DNA of 64,000 nt from Mobula hypostoma. Lineage: Eukaryota. Position numbers and translations under genes: made by a program. The DNA lies in NCBI RefSeq assembly GCF_963921235.1, contig NC_086097.1, forward strand, positions 166,224,001 to 166,288,000. The letters run 5' to 3'. How positions within the stretch are numbered: position 1 is the first letter of the stretch; every line of letters begins with the position of its first letter. The notes below the pieces were generated by a model, which saw only the letters and a program-made list of their open reading frames with translations, did no database searches and was not told the origin of the DNA. Of the stretch, positions 339-24,995 are shown one piece after another.

Positions 339-1889
339 AAAACTGTCTTTGAAAAAAAGACTAGTCAGCAAGAATCATATTTAAACGTCATCCTATGCTG
401 GGTCAATCAATGCTGGGTACTTGTTTGAGGTGTTAATATCGTTCAATATCTTTGACAGGGGTGATTTGGTCTGGCATAAAATGGCTCTGAGTTCACTCAG
501 AATTTCTGTTCCAAATTACCTTCTCTTGCCAGCAGAGTGTTTGTAGATGGACAAAATTCTGGGGTTCCTGTTAAAGTGGTTGTGATGTCCCTCAGGATTA
601 AACACATCACTTGCTCTTGGCTCTGACAGTCATACAAAGGCTAGAGATTTACATGAAGAAACAGAGGACATCCGATGGCAATGAATAACATGGGTCAGCT
701 CTTTATGGGTAAACAGAATAATTATGAAACTGTCCCTCTGTCCTGCCTTTTTGCCTCCTGATGCTACTGGCCCTCTCAACCCCATCTCTTAAGCCTCCCC
801 CACCCTCTCCATCTGCCCATCAGCCTCACATTCTTCCCTTCAGCTCCCCTTCCCCTTATTCCATGTTCCACTATTCTCCCCTATCAGACTGAAGAGGACT
901 GCAGTAGTGATAGAAGGTTCCATAGTTAGAGGAATTGAGACAAGATTGTGTGGCTTTCCAGGTGCCAGGTTCAGGGATGTCTTGGATCAGGTCCACGGCA
1001 TTCTGAAGGGGAAGGGGGAGTGGCCAGAAGTCTGCGTAGATATTGGCACCAATGACATAGAAGGAAAGGCGAGGGGGTCCTGGAGAGAGATATCAGGAAG
1101 CTAGGTAGAAAGCAGCAATGCAGGACCACCAGAGTAATCTCTGGATTGCTGCCTGAGCCATGCACCAGTGAGGGTAAGAATAGAAGCATTTGTCAGGTAA
1201 ATGCGTGACTGAGGAACTGTTGCATGGGGCAGGGGTATGATCTGTCACACCTGAACCTGAGGGGGACGGATATCCTTGTGGGCAGGTTTGCTAGAGCTGT
1301 TCAGGAGCGTTTAGTTGATTTGGCAAGGGATGTGAAATGGAATGATAGGGCTGAGTATGAGGCAGCTGGTTTACCTCAGAGGCGATGTGTAGTGAGACTG
1401 CTAGCAAGGATGGGCAAAATTGCAGTCAGTGGGATGAGTTATAATGTAAAATGGGGACAAAATTGCAAAAGGGTGATGAATACAGTACTCACGGTGTTAT
1501 AGTTGAATCAGGTTGATGAACGTGTAGCACAGTTAGTGATTGACAGGTATGGCGCTGAGGGCATTACTGAGGTGTGGCTGAGGGAAGATTATAGCTGGGA
1601 GCTTAACATCCAAGGATTCACATTGTATCAAAAGGACAGGCAGGTTGGCAGAGAGGGTTGGTAAAACATGAAAGGTGTAGAATCCTTGTGAGTAGAGCTA
1701 GAAACTAAAGCGTAAAAAGACCCTGATGGGAGTTAAGGACAGGCCTGTGAACAGTAGCAAAGATGTGGGTTATAAATTACATCAAGAGACAGAAAAGGCA
1801 TGTCAAAGGGGCAATGTTATTAGGGGATTTCGATATGCAGGCAGATTAGGAAAATAAGGTTGATGCTGGATCCCAAGAGGGGGAACTTG

Positions 1890-2190
1890 TAGTAGTAGTA
1901 GTAGTAGTAGTCATAGTCATACTTTATTGATCCCGGGGGAAATTGGTTTTCGTTACAGTTGCACCATAAATAATTAAATAGTAATAAAACCATAAATAGT
2001 TAAATAGTAGTATGTAAATTATGCCAGGAAATAAGTCCAGGACCAGCCTATTGGCTCAGGGTGTCTGATCCTCCAAGGGAGGAGTTGTAAAGTTTGGTGG
2101 CCACAGGCAGAAATGACTTCCTATGACGCTCTGTGCTGCATCTCGGTGGAATGAGTCTCTGGCTGAATGTACTCCTGTACCCAACCAGTG
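1890..2190 (-). mobile_element. Rex1/Babar-type LINE 3' fragment nested in CR1
   Basis: Minus-strand RLIPPRCSTERHRKSFLPVATKLYNSS C-terminus, then AATAAA and a (TAC)n tail. The CR1 frame resumes at CLRDGFLEQL. Confidence 0.7.
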
Positions 2191-2543
2191 CCCAACCAAT
2201 CTGCCTACGAGATGGCTTTTTAGAGCAGCTCGTAGTTGAGCCCACTAGATGATCAGCTATTCTAGATTGGGTGTTGTGTAATAAACCAGGATTGATCAGA
2301 GATCATAAAGCAAAGGAATCCTTAGGAGGCATTGATCATATAAGCAATTTGAGAGGGAGAAGCTAGAGTCAGATGTATCAGTATTACAGTGGAGAAAAGG
2401 GAATTACAGAGGCACGAGAAAGGAGCTGGCCGGAGTTGAATGGAAGGGGACGCTAGAAGGATGATGGCAGAGCAGCAATGGCTGGGATTTCTTGGAGCAT
2501 TTCTGAAAGCGTGGGATAGATACATCCCAAAGAAGAAGAAGTA

Positions 2544-2856
2544 GAGAGAACTAGAAGGCACAGCCTCAAAATTGAGGGATGGCCCTTTAGAATTAAGGTA
2601 AGGAGGAATTTTTTTAGCCATGGAGTAGTAAATCTGTGGAATGCTCTGCCTCAGACTGTGGTGGAGGCCAAGTCGGTGCATATATTTAAGGTGAAAGTTA
2701 ATCGTTTCCTGATCAGTCAGGGCATCAAAGGATATAGCGAGATGGCAGGTGTATTGTGTTGAGTGGGATCCGGGATCAGCCATAATAGAATGACAGAGCA
2801 GACTTGATGGGCTGAATGGCCTAATTCTGCTGCTCTGTCTTATGGTCTTATAGTCT
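2544..2856 (+). mobile_element. 5'-truncated CR1 3' fragment nested in CR1
   Basis: CR1 3' UTR and tail, flanked by TSD AAGTA (2539-2543 and 2857-2861). Removing it restores KKKKYSKGR. Confidence 0.85.
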
Positions 2857-5064
2857 AAGTATTCTAAAGGCAGGATGGTGCAACTATGGCTGACAAGGGA
2901 AGTCAAAGCCAACATAAAAGAGAGGGCATATAATAAAGCAAAAATTAGTGGGCAGTTAGAGGATTGAGAAGCTTTTAAAAATCAACAGAAGGCAAATAAG
3001 AAAGACATATAGAGGGAAAAGAGGAAATATGAAGGTAAGCTAGCCAAAAACAATAAAAAGGATACCCAAGGATTTTTCAGATACATGAAGAGTAAAAGAG
3101 AGGTGAGAGTAGATATTGGACCATTGGAAAACAATGCTGGAGATGTAGTAATGGAGGACAAGGAAATGCAGATGAATTGAATAAGTATTTTTCATCAGTC
3201 TGTACTGTGGAAGACACTAGCAGTATGCTGGAAGTTCGTGAGTGTCAGGTGGCAGAAGTGAGTGAAGTTGCCATTACTAGGGAAAAGATCTTTGGGAAAC
3301 TGAAAGGTTTCTTCAAGAAGGGAGAGAGGCAGAAGAAAGGAAGTTATAGGACAGTTAGTCTGACTTAAGTGGTTGGGAAGATGTTGGATTTGATTGTTAA
3401 GGATGTGGTTTCAAGGTACTTGAAGGCACATGATAAAATAGGCCAAAGTCAGCATGTTTTTTTTTAAACGGAAAATCTTGCCTGACAAGTCGGTAGGAAT
3501 TCTATGAAGAAATAACAAGCAGGATAGACAAAGGGGAATCAGTGGATGTTATGTACTTGGACTTTCAGGCGTTTGACAAGCTGCCAGACACGAAACTGCT
3601 TAGCAAGTTAAGAGCCCATGGTATTACAGGAAAGATACTGGCATGGATAGAGTGTTGGTTGATTTGCAGGAGGCAAAAGGGGTGGGAATAAATGGAGCCT
3701 TTTCTGGTTGGCTGCCAGTGATTAGTAGGTCTGTGTTAGGACCGCTTCTTTTTATGTTATACATCAATGATTTAAAAGGTGGAATCAGTGGCTTTTTGGC
3801 CAAGGTTGAGGACAATACAAAGATAGGTGGAGTGTCAGGTAGCATTGAGGCTGCAGAAGGATATAGTCTGATTAGCAGAATGGGCAAAGAAGTGGCAGTT
3901 GGAATATCATGTCGGGAAGTGTATGGTCATGCTCTTTGGTATAAGAAATAAAAGTGCAGACTACTTTCTAAATGAAGAGAAAATTCAAAAATCTGAGGTG
4001 CAAAGGGACTTGAGAGTCCTTGTGCAGGATTCCCTAAAGGTTAATTAGCAGGTTAAGTCTGTGGTGAGGAAGGTAAATACAATGTAGCATTCATTTTGAG
4101 AGGACCAGAATATAAAAGCAAGGATGTCATAAGGCACTGACGAGGCCTCACTTGCAGTATTGTGAGCAGTTTTGGGCCCCTTATCTTAGAAGGAATGTGC
4201 TGACATTGAGGAGGGTTCAGCGGAGGGTGATGGGAATGAAAGGATTACCTATGAGGGATGTTTGATGGCTCTGGGCCTGTAATCACTGAAATTCAGAAGA
4301 ATGATGGGGTATCTCATTGAAACCTATCGAATTTCGGAAGGCCTCAGCGGAGTGGAAGTGAAGAGGATGTTTCCTATGGTGGGGGAGTCTCGAATCAGAG
4401 GGTCCAGCCTCAGAATAGAGGGATGTCCATTTAGAATGGAGATGAGGAGGAATTTCTTTAGCCATGGAGTGGTGAATCTGTGGAATTCATTGCCACAAGA
4501 GGCAGGTCATTGGGTGTATTTAAGGCAGAGGTTGATAGCTTCTTGATTGGTCAGGGCATCAAGGGTTCGGTGGAGAAGTCAGGAGATTAGAGCTGAGAGA
4601 GAAATGAATCAACCATGATGAAATGGTGGAGCAGACTCGATGGGCCAAATGGCCTAATTCTTCTCTGTTATCTTATCGTTTTATGGTCTTGATCCATCTT
4701 CTTCTGCACTTATCAGTTCTTACAACCTCACAGCTCCTCTCTTATCTGCCTATCACCCCCCCCCCACCGCACCCCGATCAGGATCTACCTATCACCTACC
4801 AACTCTTGCTCCACCTCTTCCAACTCCTTTGTATACTGGCTATCTCCCCTCTTTTTTTCCAGTCCATCTGGATCTGGAGCTGAAATGCCGACGGTTCATT
4901 TCCCTCCACAGATGCTGCCTGTCACCCCTTTGTGTCTCTGCATCCAGAGCATAGTCCCCCACACATCTCTCATCCATGTACCTATCTAATATTCTATTAA
5001 ATTATACAATTGAACTCACATCTACCATCTTTGCTGTGAGCTCTGAGTGAAGAGGCTGCTCCTC

Positions 5065-15301: not shown

Positions 15302-15861
15302 GTATGTTAACAACATCTGTCTCTACAACTACTCCCCCATATATTGTGGTGCTCTGGTTCCCATCCCTTGCATCTCCAGTTTAAAAGTTTTATCTCTTTT
15401 CAATAGTATTTACACTCTGTTCAAATTCTATTCAACTGTAGTTTAATATTTTGGATACCTGCTAAAGGTGTGATATCAACTCCAAACCACTTGTAGATTA
15501 ATTTGAAATGACACATTACTGAATACAAGCATGAGAAATATCTTTCATTAATGTCAGAGTGAAATGGTAGCACTTAGGCACAATAACAATTGACTGCTGT
15601 TGGCTTAGCTCAGAATAAAATCACTTTGTTAAATTTACCACATCATTAAGACAGTAAACTAGAATATTCCTCTGAGTTAGTTATCTAGTCTCAAGGCTCA
15701 CATGATGACTGCTATTGTGAAGGCAGAGGTGGAGAAGCGACAAGGTTTCCATGTTACAAGAGCAGAGATTCAGCAACCTGATAACATTCTTGAGGCAGAC
15801 CTGTTAGTGATCAGCCAGTAACCCAGATGTTGTGTGTTTAATATTTAAGTAATAGTTGAGA

Positions 15862-16701
15862 TAATTACGTAGTGGGTAGTCGTCGTTGTGGCTATCCCTC
15901 GAGGTCGAGGATGATGGTCTTCATTCTGTTGATCTACTTATGGGCTCTCAAGTGGCTTATGAGTCCAATCTTGGCTTTGAAAGTTCTTCTGCATTCAGGA
16001 CAGGTAGTTCCAGATGGCAGATCGCGCTTTGGTTGTTGCTGCCTCTCTTTCCATTTTCTTCTCTTTTCTTCTAATTCTGCACATCTATTGGCTTTGATAA
16101 GTTGCTGTTCCTTCTTGGATGATGGCTTGGCAGAGTTTCCTGTCCTTGGCATTGGTTTCCCAATTGTTGATGTCGACGTTACATTTCTTCATGTTGGCTT
16201 TTAAGATGTCTTTGGATCTTTTCTGTTGTCCGCCTCTTTTATGCTTCTTTAAGCTGGGAGTAGAAGATTTGTTTTGGCAGACGTTCGTGGGTAGTGGTAG
16301 TGACTCCATATGTCACTACTACAGGGCGTGACGACCCTGACTTACACGAGTCCCGGGCTCAGCTGGCTCCAGCTGACAGGATCCGGTATGGATCCCTATC
16401 CAGGGTTACGGATCCCACTGCCTTGTGGGTATCTTCGGGAAAAGAGAAGGTTAAGGAGTAAACCCTACACAAATCCGGAGTGAAGCCCCTAAGGCGGTTG
16501 GATGATGTATCATGTCACCTCCCAGCAGCTCCTGCAGCCAAGCTGATGCCAAATGTACTGCTTCGCATTCCTTTGGACCACATCCACAAGGCCAAGAGGA
16601 GGATCTTGACGTCTGGGCAGCCCAGGATCTTCATATTCATCGCCCAGGTCTGCGTCCCAGAATGGGCGCATCCATTGTCTACTTAGACAGATGGAGCCAT
16701 G
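15862..16701 (-). mobile_element. RTE-clade LINE insertion: 3' end on minus strand (15862-16289) plus an inverted putative 5' segment (16290-16701)
   Basis: ERLPKQIFYSQL and CPECRRTFKAKIGLISHLRAH (C2H2) C-terminus; 11-bp TSD AATAGTTGAGA (15851-15861 and 16702-16712) splitting the LTR. Confidence 0.8.
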
Positions 16702-18407
16702 AATAGTTGAGAAATCTTTTGTGAGTATATTGGTTCATTAAGCGCTCTTGTTCATTTAAATAATTCATTAAGGATTATATGTATAAATATGTGAATTGCA
16801 TATATCATTGCGCTACCACACGATACCTCTGTATTGCTTAAAGTAAACTCAAAGTTAGACCAGCATTTTCAGATTTGTGTACCACCTTTGAATTAGTTTA
16901 ATGCTTTGAAGTTATGAAACATAACATTGATGACAAGAAATGTTTTAAATGAACCCAAGATGGCTACAAACTTGTTGAAGTGCAGCGAGACGTTTGAACT
17001 AAAAAAAAGCAGTAAGAGATGGTTGAGTTACTAAAAGCAGCACAGCACATGTTCTTCAGAAGGGAAGACATGATCAAGGTTTTTAAAAGAATTCAAAAAA
17101 GGGAAGAAACCATGTGTTCCTAAACACTTTGAGTACTGGGTGTTAATAATCATAAAAAAGAGCAAAATGGCAGGCTACATCGGAAAGATAAGCATGTTTG
17201 ACTACAGAACTGATAATTGGATTTTATATACCGGGCAGATCGAGGGGTATTTTGAAGCAAATGAAATAGCAAATGAGAAGCAGGTATAAATTTTGCTGAG
17301 TGCATTGGGTTTAAGAGCATCCAATTTGCTTTGAAGTTTGTCTGCTCCTACCAAACTAGAAGAAATGAGCTTTGATGATATTGTCAAAGTAATGTACGAA
17401 CACTTAGAACTGAAACAGTTGTTGATTTAATTTTCATAAATGGAATCAAAAAGAAGGGGAGTCCATTTCAGTGTACGTGGCTTAATTGAAGAAATTGCCT
17501 GAACATTGACAGTTTGGTAATGGCTTCACAATGCATGGAGAGATCGTCTTGTTAGTGGAACCTTAGAAGAAAACATCCAAAAATGGGTCCTAACTGAAGC
17601 ACAACTCACATTTAAAAGAGCAGTTGAAATCGCTGTTTCAATGGAAACTGCAGACAGAGGTGCAATTGAGTTGCAGTCAGGAATGAAAGTGAGTGTGAAC
17701 AAAAATTGTAACATCTAAACATCTAACCAGAAAGTGGCCTAGCTGACCAAATTGTGTTACCATTGTGGTAGTGGCTCATATACACCAGACCAATGCAGTT
17801 TTAAAGGCGAAACTTGCAGAAAATGCAACAAAGTAGGCCTTGTACAAAGAGCATGTCGGTAAGACAAAAATAAATGGACTGCACAGAGAAGCGAAAAAGC
17901 AAGAAAGTTAAGAGTCAGTTTCAAAAAGAGCACTGATTGGCATGCTATTGATGAAAAGTCTGATAATGATGACAGTGACACCGGACTGGCTGGCCTTGAG
18001 ATTTACAATGTGAAAACTAGCAAAAGACAAACAATATGGCCTACACCAGAGTGAATGACAAATTAATTAAAGTGGAATTAGACGCTGGTTCAGTTGTTTC
18101 AGTCATTCTACAGAATGAGTTTGAGAGACATTTCAAGGATACTAAACTGTAGATATCCAACTAAGAACTTGAACTGGAGAAAATATGTAGGTTATGAAAC
18201 CTGTGGGAATGACATTCGTGATAGTGGAGTGCAACAACCAACAAGCCACATTGAGCTTGTATATGGTAAAAACAGGAGGAACAACATTGTGAGAACATGA
18301 GTGGCTGATCCAACTACAACTTGATTGGAATCCAGCCACTATTTCCATGCCACATCTGCAATGCAGCAAACTGAAAGTAAATTAAGTAAGGTACTGGATA
18401 ATGCCAC

Positions 18408-19017
18408 AACTGTCTCCATGCCAAACACCATGAACCGTTGCCCAACAGGACAAAGCCAGCTGTTGGTACAGCCTCTGCGCTTCCAGCTGGAAAGCGTATT
18501 CGACCAAGGAAGGACCATGCTGGTCAGAGGAAGCATGAAAGTGATGAAAATTCTGCTCTGACTACAACAGTTTATGCAGGCGACATACCTGAGAAAGCTT
18601 CTGATATGTTAATCAGACAGTTACTTCTGAAATGTGGCTTGGTTTTAAGCTGGAAGAGAGTTCAAGGAGCTTCAGGAAAGTTGCAAGCATTTGGCTTTTG
18701 TAAGTATAAAAATCCAGAATCTATTATTGAAGTTTATTGCATGAACTTCAAGTGGGAGACAAAAAGCTGCTTTTAAAAGTAGAAGCAAAGACCAAAGCCC
18801 AGCTGGATGAATGGAAGATCAAAAAGAAAGACGTCAATGGAAATACAAAATCAGAGGATTTGTCAGGTGAGGTTGTGGATGAGGAAACCAAGAGGAGAGA
18901 GATCAGATCGTAAAGGGTGCAATAGAAGGATTAGTAAGAGAACACTCTAGTGATTTAAATGCATCTTTCCAAGATCAAGAAGCACAAACTAGAAGGAGAA
19001 AAAGGAAGAAAAAGAAA
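18408..19017 (+). pseudogene. RBM25: Intronless RBM25 (RNA-binding motif protein 25) fragment including the RRM, frameshifted
   Basis: Translates as TTTVYAGDIPEKASDMLIRQLLLKCGLVLSWKRVQGASGKLQAFGFCKYKNPES, then in other frames LHELQVGDKKLLLKVEAKTKAQLDEWK, DEETKRR and DQIVKGAIEGLVREHSSDLNA. These match vertebrate RBM25 as I recall it. Confidence 0.93.
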
Positions 19018-19462
19018 AGTGTCCAGAGCTGTCAGAACCACTTCCTGCAGTCTCAGAATCAGCTCCTACAACCACCATGGAGCAGGCACTAAAATCTGAG
19101 ATTGCTTTTATATCCACAAGTCTCACCTGCCCAGCAGAGTGATCCCCCTTGTCAGGAAGGACAGAATCAGAATCAGGTTTAAAATCACCAGCATATATTG
19201 TGAAATTTATTGTCTTTGCAACAGCAGTACAATGCAATACACAATAGAGGAAAACACTGTGAATTACAGTAAGTATATATACAAACACATACACACATAT
19301 ACATAATAGAGGAAAAAACTGTGAATTACAGTAAGTATATGTACATACACATACACACATATACATATATGAAGTTAAATTAAATATGTAGTGCAAAAAT
19401 AAAAACAAAAACATAATGAGGTAGTGTTCATGGTTTAATGTCCATCCATTCAGAAATCAGAT

Positions 19463-19661
19463 TGTTGTTAGTCCTTTCTGCAGCTTGTGGCATATTGGGC
19501 AACCTTTCCATTTCCTTAGCATTTGTCTGTTTTTTAACGAGGCCGAGTTGCTAGCTCAATGCACAACCCAGCATCCCTAAGCATGCAAGGAGCTGGCCAG
19601 ATTTGAACCCAGGACCACTCGCCTTGAAATCTGGTGCTGATGCCACTACACCACCAGCCAG
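19463..19661 (-). mobile_element. tRNA-derived SINE
   Basis: A-box TGGTGTAGTGG and B-box GGTTCAAATC on the minus strand; TSD CATTCAGAAAT (19447-19457 and 19662-19672). Confidence 0.75.
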
Positions 19662-20049
19662 CATTCAGAAATTGGATGGCAGAGGGGAAGAAGCTGTTCC
19701 TGAATCATCGAGTGTGCCTTCAGGCTCCTGTGCCTTCCTTCTGACGGTAGCAGTGAGAACAGGGCATATCCCGGATGATGGAGGTCCTTAATGATGGATA
19801 CTTTTTGAGACATTGCTCCTTGCAGATGCGCTGGATACTACAGAGGCCCATGATAAAGGTGACTTAAGTTTAAAACTCTCTGCAGCTTATTTCAATCCCA
19901 TGCAGTAGCACCAAACGCACCCCCTACCCCATACCATTCAGTGATGCAGCCAGTAAGAATGCTCTCCACATTACATCTATAGAAATTTGTGAATGTGTTT
20001 GATGACATACAAAATCTCCTCATACTCCTTTTGAAATATAGCCACTAGT

Positions 20050-20258
20050 CACCCCCTTCACATCAGTGTTCAGTAGATGCACCTTTGGCAGCAATTAGAG
20101 CCTTGAATATGCATGGATAAGTCTCTATCAGCTTTGCACATCTGGACACCAACTTTTCCCCATTCTTCTTTACAAAACTGCTCAAGCTCTGTCAGATTGC
20201 ATGGGGATCGCGAGTGAACAACCCTTTTCAAGTCCAGATACAAATTCTCAATTGGGGA
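20050..20258 (-). mobile_element. Tc1-like transposase C-terminal fragment
   Basis: SPIENLYLDLKRVVHSRSPCNLTELEQFCKEEW motif. Confidence 0.8.
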
Positions 20259-21294
20259 ATACTTTTTATAGGCACTACAAATGTACATAGATTTTATATT
20301 CATAAAGTAACACTAGGCACAGAATTATCTGTACATAAGGTGACAGACAGAAAATGATAAAATAGCAGTGGTGGGGCGGGTTAGTAGGTGGAGGTGTTAA
20401 TCAGCCTTCCTGCTTAAGGAAAGTAACTGCTTTTGAGTCTGATGTGCCTCGCATGGATGGTAGGTAGCCTCCTCCCTGAGGTGTGGGACGAACAGTCCAT
20501 GAGCAGGGTGTGAGGGATCCTTCATAATGTTGCTAGCCTTTTTCTAGCACATTTCTGTATATATGTCCTTGATGGTGGGTAGTTTGTCCCTGATGTTGGC
20601 ATCAAAAGTGTGGTGACACTTATGGGTTTCTCCAGCACAACTCTGTGTTTCTATATGTACATATCCGGGGCTGAGCAATGGGGCGGAATTCTTGGGGAGT
20701 TGGAGAGAGAGGTTTGGATACAGAATAACAGGTAATTGCAGATGTGATGAATTATTTATTCCTGCTGAGACTTGCAGGCTGAAATCAAGTTGAGGACCTC
20801 AGAGATTTATAGAAAGTTCGAAGTAGTTTATTATCAAAGTACATAGTATATGTCACTTTATGCAAACCTGAGATTTATTTTTGTTGTGGACATAACAAGA
20901 AACATAATGGAATCAATGAAAGACTGCACCAACAGGATGGACAAACAAAAAATGAGCAAAGGACAACAAAGTGTGTAAATACAAAAGAAATAAAAGCAAT
21001 AAGTATCAAGAACATGGGACGAAGAGTCCCAGAGTGAGTCCACAGGTTGTGGGAGCAATTCAGTGACAGGTCAAGTGAAGTTAAGTGAAGCTGTGTGAAG
21101 TTATACCCCTGGTTCAAGAGCCTGATGGTTCAGGGGTAACAGAAAGAACAGCATGGACACCTTTGGGAATTGCAAACTGGAACTGAGGAGTTTGGGAATG
21201 GTTTTTATTATAAACGTAATAACATGCACATGGAAGGGAGTAACAGATAGGATTCCTAGGTTTGTTATAAAAGTGAATACCTCTGTATTGTCCT

Positions 21295-21664
21295 AATGTT
21301 TAAAGGACTAGAAAAGGTGAATATGTAGTGGATGTTTCCTGTGATGGGGATATCCAGAACTAGAGAGCACAGCCTCAAAATTGAGGGGTGACCTTTTAGA
21401 ACAGAAGTAAGGAAGAATTGTTTTAGACAGAGAGTGCTGAATCCATGGAATGCTCTGCCATAGACTACGGTAGAGGCCAAGTCCGCAGGTACATTCAAAG
21501 TGGAAGTTGATAGATTCTTGATTGGTTGGGGCATCAAAGAATATGATGAGAGGGCAGGTGTATGGGGTTGAAATGGGATCCGGAATCAGCTGTGATAAAA
21601 TGGCGGAGTGGACTCGATGAGCTGAATGGCCTAATTCTGCTCCTATGCCTAATGGTCTTATGGT
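21295..21664 (+). mobile_element. CR1 3' fragment
   Basis: CR1 C-terminal coding remnant, GCTGAATGGCCT stem-loop and ATGGTCTT tail. Confidence 0.8.
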
Positions 21665-23039
21665 AATACCTTCTTTGTAGCTGTATCCATATGTTGGGAC
21701 CAGGATAGATCCTCAGAGATACTGACATCCAGAAAACTTGGAACTGCTCACTCTTTCCACTTTTGATTCATCTATGTGTGTGTTCCCTCGTATTACCCTT
21801 TCTGAAGCCCACAATCAGTTCTTGGGTCTTATTGACACTGAGTTCAAGGTCATTGCTGCAATACCACTCAACCAGCTGATACAGCTCACTTCTCTATGCC
21901 CTCTCATCACCATCTGAAATTTGTCAACAATAGTTGTGTCATCAGCAAATTTATAGATGGCATTTGAGCTGTGCGTAGCCATGCAGTCTTGGGTGTAGAG
22001 AGAAAAGAGGAGTGCGCTAAGCACACATCCCTAAGATGTGCCACTTTTGATTGTCAGTGAGGTGGAGATGGTACTTCTGATCCCTACAGATTGTGGGCTT
22101 CCAGTTAGGAAGTCGAGGATCCAGTTGCAGAGGGAGGTATAGAGGCCTAGGCTTTGGAACATTTCGATCTGAACTGTAGAAATTATTGCATTAAACACTA
22201 AGCTATAGTCAATAAACAGCATTCTGACATAGGTGTTAGTATTATCCAGGTGGTCCAAGGCTGCCTTAAGAACCAATAAGATTGCATCCGTGGTAGATGT
22301 ATTGTGGCGATAGGTCCTTACTAAGAAAGAAATTAATTCTAGCTACAGCAACCTCTCAAAGCACTTCATGACTGCAGATGCGAGTGACGTTATCCTACAA
22401 GTGTAAGAAAGTCTCCATAGCAATTAAATCTTTAGCCCTTAATGGGACAATTTCAAATTTACTGTGCTGTGGATGTCTCCATACAGCAGTTGTATTATAT
22501 AATACACTATGTAGATGTGATGCATTCTCTGTCGAGTAGGAGCTTATAGTGAAGTGTGTTGTGTACTTAATATTTAAGTACATTTGAGCAATCTTGTGTG
22601 TGTGTGTGTATGTGTGTATATATATATAGGTTGATTAAGCATCCTTGCTCATTTAAATGATTCATTATGGGTTATATGTACAACTACATGAATTGCATTC
22701 ATCAACACACTACCATGCAAAATGTGCGCCTCGCTTAAAGTAAACTCCAAGTTACACCCGCATTTTTGAAGTCCCATGTCTTCCCTTGAATTAGTTGAAT
22801 GTTTGAAGTTACAAAATTGACAGGACTTGTTAATAACACATCAGTGGGACTTCCTTCTGATGGGTTCCAGTGCATTAGCCCCTGAGAGGAGTCCAGTGCC
22901 CATTTGATTGGCAGGCCATGTGAAATGCAGTGTCCTTGATGGCAAGTGGCCCCTGAATAGCTTTGACTGGTTGTTATGGTGATAACTCCACATTTTCATG
23001 CAAACACCCAACAACATTTTGCTAATTCAAGGTTATTGA

Positions 23040-24995
23040 ATGGAGCCCATCTATTCCTCAAGAGAAATTAGGGATAGTATCAATTCCAAAGAAGTAGCAT
23101 ACAAATTAGCCAGAGAAAGTGGCTCACCTGAGGACTGGGAGAAATTCAGAGTTCAGCAGAGGAGGACAAAGGGCTTAATTAGGAAGGGGAAAAAAGATTA
23201 TGAGAGAAAACTGGCAGAGAACATAAAAACGGACTGTAAAAGCTTTTATAGATATGTAAAAAGGAAAAGACTGGTAAAGACAAATGTAGGTCCCCTGCAG
23301 ACAGAAACAGGTGAATTGATTATGGGGAGCAAGGACATGGCAGACCAATTGAATAATTACTTTGGTTCTGTCTTCACTAAGGAGGACATAAATAATCTTT
23401 CAGAAATAGTAAGGGACAGAGGGTCCAGTGAGATGGAGGAACTGAGGGAAATACATGTTAGTAGGGAAGTGGTGTTAGGTAAATTGAAGGGATTGAAGGC
23501 AGATAAATCCCCAGGGCCAGATGGTCTGCATCCTAGAGTGCTTAAGGAAGTAGCCCAAGAAATAGTGGATGCATTAGTGATAATTTTTCAAAACTCGTTA
23601 GATTCTGGACTAGTTCCTGAGGATTGGAGAGTGGCTAATGTAACCCCACTTTTTAAAAAAGGAGGGAGAGAGAAACCGGGGAATTATAGACCGGTTAGCC
23701 TAACGTCGGTGGTGGGGAAACTGCTGGAGTCAGTTATCAAGGATGTGATAACAGCACATTTGGAAAGCGGTGAAATGATCGGACAAAGTCAGCATGGATT
23801 TGTGAAAGGAAAATCATGTCTGACGAATCTCATAGAATTTTTTGAGGATGTAACTAGTAGAGTGGATAGGGGAGAACCAGTGGATGTGGTATATTTGGAT
23901 TTTCAAAAGGCTTTTGACAAGGTCCCACACGGGAGATTAGTGTGCAAACTTAAAGCACACGGTATTGGGGGTAAGGTATTGGTGTGGGTGGAGAATTGGT
24001 TAGCAGACAGGAAGCAAAGAGTGGGAATAAATGGGACCTTTTCAGAATGGCAGGCGGTAACTAGTGGGGTACCGCAAGGCTCAGTGCTGGGACCCCAGTT
24101 GTTTACAATATATATTAATGACTTGGATGAGGGAATTAAATGCAGCATCTCCAAGTTTGCGGATGACACGAAGCTGGGTGGCAGTGTTAGCAGTGAGGAG
24201 GATGCTAAGAGGATGCAGGGTGACTTGGATAGGTTGGGTGAGTGGGCAAACTCATGGCAGATGCAATTTAATGTGGATAAATGTGAAGTTATCCACTTTG
24301 GTGGCAAAAATAGGAAAACAGATTATTATCTGAATGGTGGCCGATTAGGAAAAGGGGAGGTGCAACGAGACCTGGGTGTCATTATACACCAGTCATTGAA
24401 AGTGGGCATGCAGGTACAGCAGGCGGTGAAAAAGGCGAATGGTATGCTGGCATTTATAGCGAGAGGATTCGAGTACAGGAGCAGGGAGGTACTACTGCAG
24501 TTGTACAAGGCCTTGGTGAGACCACACCTGGAGTATTGTGTGCAGTTTTGGTCCCCTAATCTGAGGAAAGACATCTTTGCCATAGAGGGAGTACAAAGAA
24601 GGTTCACCAGATTGATTCCTGGGATGGCAGGTCTTTCATATGAAGAAAGACTGGATGACCTGGGCTTGTACTCGTTGGAATTTAGAAGATTGAGGGGGGA
24701 TCTGATTGAAACGTATAAGATCCTAAAGGGATTGGACAGGCTAGATGCGGGAAGATTGTTCCCGATGTTGGGGAGGTCCAGAACGAGGGGTCACAGTTTG
24801 AGGATAGAGGGGAAGCCTTTTAGGACCGAGATTAGGAAAAACTTCTTCAGACAGAGAGTGGTGAATCTGTGGAATTCTCTGCCACAGCAAACTGTTGAGG
24901 CCAGTTCATTGGCTATGTTTAAGAGGGAGTTAGATATGGCCCTTGTGGCTACAGGGGTCAGGGGGTATGGAGGGAAGGCTGGGGCAGGGTTCTGA
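23040..24995 (+). CDS. CR1 ORF2 reverse transcriptase (no endonuclease domain; start ATG comes from flanking DNA)
   Basis: 651-aa open frame with KSPGPDG, NYRPVSLTS, YLDFQKAFDKVPH, GVPQGSVLGP and FADD. Translation is not demonstrated. Confidence 0.6.
   Translation: MEPIYSSREIRDSINSKEVAYKLARESGSPEDWEKFRVQQRRTKGLIRKGKKDYERKLAENIKTDCKSFYRYVKRKRLVKTNVGPLQTETGELIMGSKDMADQLNNYFGSVFTKEDINNLSEIVRDRGSSEMEELREIHVSREVVLGKLKGLKADKSPGPDGLHPRVLKEVAQEIVDALVIIFQNSLDSGLVPEDWRVANVTPLFKKGGREKPGNYRPVSLTSVVGKLLESVIKDVITAHLESGEMIGQSQHGFVKGKSCLTNLIEFFEDVTSRVDRGEPVDVVYLDFQKAFDKVPHGRLVCKLKAHGIGGKVLVWVENWLADRKQRVGINGTFSEWQAVTSGVPQGSVLGPQLFTIYINDLDEGIKCSISKFADDTKLGGSVSSEEDAKRMQGDLDRLGEWANSWQMQFNVDKCEVIHFGGKNRKTDYYLNGGRLGKGEVQRDLGVIIHQSLKVGMQVQQAVKKANGMLAFIARGFEYRSREVLLQLYKALVRPHLEYCVQFWSPNLRKDIFAIEGVQRRFTRLIPGMAGLSYEERLDDLGLYSLEFRRLRGDLIETYKILKGLDRLDAGRLFPMLGRSRTRGHSLRIEGKPFRTEIRKNFFRQRVVNLWNSLPQQTVEASSLAMFKRELDMALVATGVRGYGGKAGAGF

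Follow-up and report, generated by a model that had tools for sequence, protein, structure and literature searches.

A stretch of 64,000 nucleotides of Mobula hypostoma DNA (hereafter, the window) carries one copy of a Ty3/Gypsy retrotransposon in which spliced coding sequence of the host gene RBM25, including the RNA-binding RRM domain, takes the place of the RT-RNaseH-integrase part of pol. Copies of this hybrid share one left junction and are dispersed through the genome together with the cis signals of the element. We attribute the family, with a probability of roughly 0.88, to a single template-switch capture of spliced RBM25, which was mobilised in trans and in which the RRM travelled as a passenger. 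In this scenario, a reverse transcriptase would have switched once onto co-packaged RBM25 mRNA and then back, at short sequence matches, and pol-bearing relatives would have copied the hybrid in trans to an estimated 1,200–3,000 sites. Further jumps of reverse transcriptase would account for deletions in the RE/RD-coding end of the insert, and recombination with parent RNA would have occurred as well. The RRM would most likely have been a passenger, the hybrid having spread because all cis signals were kept on a shorter RNA.

The element in the window lies on the forward strand. Its 5' LTR (15828–16926) comprises about 247 nt bounded by TG...CA and is split into two halves (15828–15865 and 16702–16926) by an 836-nt LINE-like fragment on the minus strand (15866–16701), which is flanked by an 11-nt duplication and contains a C2H2 finger frame. 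This fragment is far commoner in the sequencing runs of organisms A and B than in that of organism F—a difference in depth, which does not equal copy number—and is likely a later insertion. A decayed primer-binding site (PBS; 16927–16938, close to TGG(C/T)GACGAGG in other copies) is followed by gag (17167–18050), which contains stops, frameshifts and two decayed CCHC-type knuckles near 17760–17850, and by a protease-like region with linker (18051–18401), assigned by motif (D-A-G at 18081–18089) and position only. Gag and protease found no match in Pfam or PDB, nor did the protease region when used as a query in a protein search; the gag read from the sequence has a counterpart in pol-bearing copies. 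Spliced RBM25 including the RRM occupies 18402–18985, with 82–95% identity per exon to the host; it yields a Pfam RRM_1 match (E=4.9e-05), and its best named relatives are RBM25 proteins, headed by the RBM25-like XP_067833824 of Heptranchias perlo. Adjacent to it, remnants of two further-downstream RBM25 exons (18986–19017) were left by deletions of 119 and 331 nt. Then follow the first part of the integrase C-terminal tail (19018–19161), with a one-base insertion near 19106–19109 that is linked to chimeric copies, a block of nested later insertions foreign to the Gypsy element (LINE-like and other repeats, 19162–22385), the end of the pol tail with the 3' untranslated stretch and a decayed polypurine tract (PPT; 22386–22556), and the 3' LTR (22557–22822).

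The order LTR, PBS, gag, protease-like region, sense-strand RBM25, pol tail and 3' LTR had been proposed in the initial annotation of this DNA and is borne out, the protease by its D-x-G motif and position only. The pol tail and the 3' LTR do not, however, directly follow the fragment as was stated there, since 3.2 kb of other repeats interrupt the tail at 19161/22386. Indels that shift the frame lie near 18450, 18467, 18725 and 18894, in agreement with the description of a frameshifted copy; the copy is dead. The flanks of the element, CCAGA (15823–15827) and GGACT (22823–22827), match at none of the five positions; unlike many other copies, the element in the window thus lacks a target duplication and may be a recombinant of two insertions.

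The host RBM25 gene was located by a genome search with an RBM25 C-terminal query and lies on the same contig as the window, on the minus strand near 99.79–99.84 Mb. As a route to the gene, a genome search with the Pfam PWI domain was discarded, since it matched two different genes, presumably SRRM1 and PRPF3. Alignment to the host gene resolves the window fragment into six host exons in host order—the 3'-terminal 10 nt of one exon, then a 48-nt microexon (18412–18459) and four exons at 18460–18629, 18630–18687, 18688–18841 and 18842–18985—with five exon junctions crossed and 18,570 bp of GT-AG introns absent. As six exons are joined without introns, the insert derives from spliced mRNA, and the predicted crossing of exon junctions is thereby confirmed, the fragment being neither single-exon nor intron-bearing. 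It is not the one contiguous piece of mRNA that had been described, given that two further exons supplied its final ~32 nt, following the 119- and 331-nt deletions. Only an internal coding fragment was taken, lacking the PWI exons; neither of its ends bears a poly(A) run or a duplication, as noted previously. Over 189 codons, 23 synonymous and 3 amino-acid changes separate the family from the host, and all three of the latter arose on the element side. The element captured the RBM25 splice form without a 12-nt alternative-acceptor stretch, which reads CFTQ in Heptranchias isoform X1 and CFT-stop in the host gene of this species. The 48-nt microexon (VSMLYTMNRCPTEGKQ; host contig 99832633–99832586, locus L055) is also present in Heptranchias proteins and in P0122 and is absent from the bony-fish and frog proteins viewed.

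The parent element persists in the same genome. Its unbroken integrase-tail pattern has 123 exact matches (control, none), and RBM25 is found in none of the 20 parent-type copies fetched. Natural frames of three parents (L084, L091, L098) contain Pfam RVT_1, RT_RNaseH and rve in Gypsy order; in parent copies about 300 nt lie between the tail and the 3' LTR, with no env there. By domain order and lack of env, the parent is a Ty3/Gypsy retrotransposon. A gag-pol read as one frame, a pair of CCHC knuckles, a short LTR and the 5-bp duplication would be in keeping with the Mag-like clade of Gypsy. Between the two junction points, four compact parent copies hold 2314, 2443, 2523 and 2475 nt of pol, so that the 2–3 kb estimated to be missing at the insert site correspond to 2.3–2.5 kb of RT-RNaseH-integrase in pol-bearing relatives. 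Pol breaks off and resumes at the insert ends, and RBM25 replaces part of the internal ORF rather than interrupting it.

Both junctions lie at short matches between parent and host. On the left, the parent reads GATGATGCCACA-GCAGTG and the host mRNA CCTGCCACA-ACT-GTCTCC; common to both is TGCCACA (7 nt, 18402–18408), in identical codon phase. The overlap suggested earlier for this junction is therefore correct for TGCCACA, but ACT belongs to the host only and GT opens the next exon. On the right, the parent sequence (A/G)GAGAAGAAAGG meets the host sequence GGAGAAGAAAAGG in an exon three further down, where the codon phase differs; the microhomology is a 9–10 nt match, (G)GAGAAGAAA, in that downstream exon. 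The purine run previously taken for the right junction (19008–19017, inside the exon remnants) is a decayed remnant of this match, but the original junction had been misplaced, the end seen in the window being a secondary deletion product. The chance of a match run per random point pair is 0.0007 for at least 7 nt and 0.00004 for at least 9 nt. Contigs of an independent sequencing run cover the left junction without any difference, supporting the view that the junction in the assembly is real. With pol breakpoints at the insert ends, microhomology on both sides and none of the contrary signs—single-exon or intron-bearing sequence, poly(A) or duplication, a junction at odds with reads—the proposed LTR-mediated retroposition by a double template switch is supported; the switch itself, an unobserved event, would be the step that joined the two RNAs.

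Genome-wide abundance was assessed by exact 21-mer matches in the 3.48-Gb genome, with reversed 21-mers as controls. The chimeric left-junction 21-mer has 180 exact matches, the parent-junction 21-mer 467 and the reversed controls none, corresponding to a chimeric share of 28% at the left junction; at the tail site it is ~22%, extrapolated from 30 loci each. Chimeras thus make up about a quarter of the element family. Dividing the 180 matches by the survival chance of a 21-mer gives an estimate of 1,200–3,000 chimeric copies, the lower figure from 6 of 40 similarity-chosen copies that keep the 21-mer and the range 1,600–3,000 from 10–12.5% decay; a first look had returned 2,836 and 2,900 candidate copies. 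Of 40 distinct copies selected for similarity to RBM25, 39 pass from protease to RBM25 without a break, and a pol match is absent from 78 of 80 copies. Where both ends could be placed (17 of 80 copies), the 5-bp flanks match at 3.06 of 5 positions (shuffled mean 1.37, maximum 2.19), and windows of 4 and 6 nt in the same copies show no target-duplication signal. The hybrids, which carry target duplications but no integrase, were thus integrated one by one, with enzymes that would have had to be supplied in trans. The non-autonomous family that the initial annotation expected if further copies existed is thus real: its dispersed members have LTRs, PBS, PPT and 5-bp target duplications and lack RT and integrase. 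That this family amplified a host RRM holds true at the DNA level, a working RRM being hypothetical.

The copies differ by 11.2% from a column yardstick (69 of 80 copies) and the two LTRs of a copy by 19% (27 pairs; not taken from an earlier self-match set, in which 3 of 22 were other repeats), and both values point to one old burst. The two LTRs of the window copy, which had earlier been judged old, are ~75% identical. Organism B has the window copy at about 1.5% difference. In organisms C and F, contigs of the flank (diverging by 5.7% and 12%) reach into the 5' LTR for 34 and 31 nt, so that the insertion is likely older than the splits from organisms B, C and F. RBM25-part contigs of the family are present in the sequencing runs of all four organisms examined, and a look-alike scan in other genomes returned nothing. 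The published mutation rate, in the part of the source consulted, is 7e-10 per generation and comes without a yearly rate.

The original capture ran three exons further than the insert in the window. Long copies (L017, L020, L038, L039, L146) hold the intervening exons; in the window type, a loss of 119 nt was followed by one of 331 nt. For 80 junction matches, taken from the start of the list of 180, the right ends comprise 28 short, 17 intermediate, 3 long, 2 other inserts and 30 unplaced, and the Delta-119 21-mer outnumbers the undeleted one genome-wide (194 vs 64). The deletion series is nested within the purine-rich RE/RD-coding end, and its recurrent members leave the RRM intact; net deletions of the modal classes amount to 138, 342–348 and 450 nt, while those of many single copies are not multiples of three. 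Exon skipping was rejected as their source, as none of 11 deletions of at least 30 nt fits exon borders exactly (the nearest, in L131, is 4 nt off on each side). In L012, L118 and L143, RBM25 rejoins pol at other points, and these copies are likely recombinants of chimera and parent RNA. Three pol-bearing copies (L198, L200, L210) carry the one-base tail insertion otherwise linked to chimeras, which suggests tail exchange from hybrid to parent, and in L011 and L159 the RBM25 part is duplicated, in tandem or internally.

Two explanations dispense with an RNA-level capture in a dispersing element. LINEs are abundant in the window, and microhomology cannot separate RNA from DNA recombination, being suited to the repair of DNA breaks as well; a LINE-made RBM25 cDNA or processed pseudogene could thus have replaced pol at the DNA level by microhomology-mediated repair, with the hybrid spreading thereafter. 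We consider this improbable. Both insert ends are internal to the coding sequence, the orientation is sense, and the insert shows no poly(A) tail, target duplication of its own or mRNA 3' end, the marks of a LINE-made processed pseudogene; moreover, the missing pol begins and ends where the insert does, as in the pattern that the consulted part of Tan et al. 2016 (PMC5131818) describes. An assembly artefact or segmental duplication of a single locus could find a foothold in L032 and L034, a near-identical inverted pair of neighbours 1 Mb apart on contig C96. Its probability is practically negligible, however, and it is refuted by copies that are only ~82% alike, lie on many contigs with differing flanks and own target duplications, and belong to a family present in the runs of four organisms.

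A more serious contender accepts the same capture but holds that a Gag-protease-RRM-tail fusion was made and favoured, with the RRM or the restored native C-terminus aiding packaging, export or integration of the hybrid RNA, so that lineages with the frame kept prevailed. In its common state the family has RBM25 joined to gag-protease in one open frame, six copies (L010, L016, L020, L024, L029, L030) have natural frames that span the left junction, and the yardstick codons are stop-free over 290 nt of protease and 600 nt of RBM25 (50 of 80 copies). A one-base insertion ~85 nt into the tail restores the native pol-end frame, which L021, L022, L028 and L029 reach from RBM25; it occurs in 20 of 52 resolved chimeras vs 0 of 17 parents (p=0.0015) and in the long, intermediate and short classes alike. 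Among 30 pattern-chosen carriers, 24 are chimeric, 3 pol-bearing and 3 unclassified, against 3 chimeric copies in 30 non-carriers. The passenger reading is strained by the in-frame left junction, the modal net deletions and this frame-restoring insertion. However, the insertion may be one hitchhiking event, and selection acting in the parent would suffice to make it rare there. A frame that lacks it ends just ~12 codons earlier, a shift of the stop on account of which avoidance of nonsense decay was also rejected as its cause. That the deletions spare the RRM would be expected in any case, as jumps of reverse transcriptase fall in the deleted, repeat-rich region anyway. The N/S ratio of copy variants (about 120 copies examined) is 1.09–1.10, hence no purifying selection is seen; linked common variants in RBM25 are 10 N vs 3 S, just one of six common RBM25 indels is a multiple of three, and the three amino-acid changes are all on the element side. 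No linked variants reach p<1e-5 in this star-like family, which gives little power for selection during amplification, and the best 120 of 388 protein matches include no protease-RRM fusion. The frame-keeping signs are few events, spotted after the fact, and a favoured fusion is in our view unlikely. Equally doubtful is the lineage it would imply, a helper-dependent Gypsy element with a working host RNA-binding domain, whose Gag-protease-RRM polyprotein would have stayed open thanks to deletions that keep the frame and a compensating frameshift; if true, a working RRM would have let the hybrid lineage take a quarter of the family insertions, flooding the germ line with RBM25-matching sequence. 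A functional retrogene or domesticated fusion is at odds with the same N/S values and with the frameshifted window copy.

Acutely transforming retroviruses form gag-onc fusions, in which host coding sequence lies in frame with gag, replication genes are lost and propagation depends on a helper. The RBM25 family resembles them in its in-frame host fusion, loss of replication genes and probable helper dependence; it has, however, no env and no infection, and any action of its captured domain is hypothetical. The closest precedents, compared here on the basis of excerpts of the cited papers, are the LTR-mediated retrocopies of animals (Tan et al. 2016, PMC5131818), where partial mRNAs replace internal ORFs with a median microsimilarity of 6 bp and for which further rounds as non-autonomous elements were proposed. 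As in those, part of the internal ORF was replaced by spliced mRNA, with microsimilarity at both ends (7 nt left, 9–10 nt right), sense orientation and, as is often the case there, an insert in frame, between two LTRs and without poly(A) or target duplication of the insert. The mechanism is thus already known, and what differs is scale, trimming series and frame-linked insertion: the cases in that study comprise single or few copies, whereas the RBM25 family is estimated at 1,200–3,000, about a quarter of its parent family, and has a deletion series and back-recombinants. Maize Bs1 (PMC5131818, PMC13317346) likewise combines host exons in an LTR element, switch points common to copies and a chimeric frame, but has 1–5 copies, three donor genes and a translated product, in contrast to one donor and thousands of decayed copies known from DNA alone. 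The crocodilian CrocERV29 (KIT-ligand) and CrocERV31 (nectin3; PMC4299795) are comparably old vertebrate captures of host mRNA present across species; they are retroviral, with 9 and 6 copies, pol retained and ORFs under purifying selection, while the RBM25 family is Gypsy-type, lost pol and decays neutrally. No title or abstract opening among the literature matches listed describes this family (the search covered papers, as distinct from repeat libraries like Repbase and Dfam), and the consulted part of the main text of a 2026 batoid genome preprint has no mention of RBM25.

LTR-mediated gene capture in a vertebrate thereby reaches thousands of copies, compared with one to nine in the published cases considered. 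The copies record capture, stepwise trimming, helper recombination and a germ-line RBM25 splice form; with this family history preserved, two questions become testable by counting, namely whether selection can act on a captured host domain to the benefit of the element, and how the host silences an element that bears coding sequence of an essential splicing factor and yet spares the gene. In practical terms, chimeric copies can lead to overcounting of RRM genes and interfere with the mapping of RBM25 reads in such genomes.

The repeat stack at 19162–22385 includes a 62-nt tandem duplication (19237–19360) and a reverse-transcriptase fragment on the minus strand (22031–22342). Downstream of the element, an uninterrupted 651-aa LINE reverse-transcriptase frame on the plus strand (23040–24995; RVT_1, E=1.5e-33) is apparently young.
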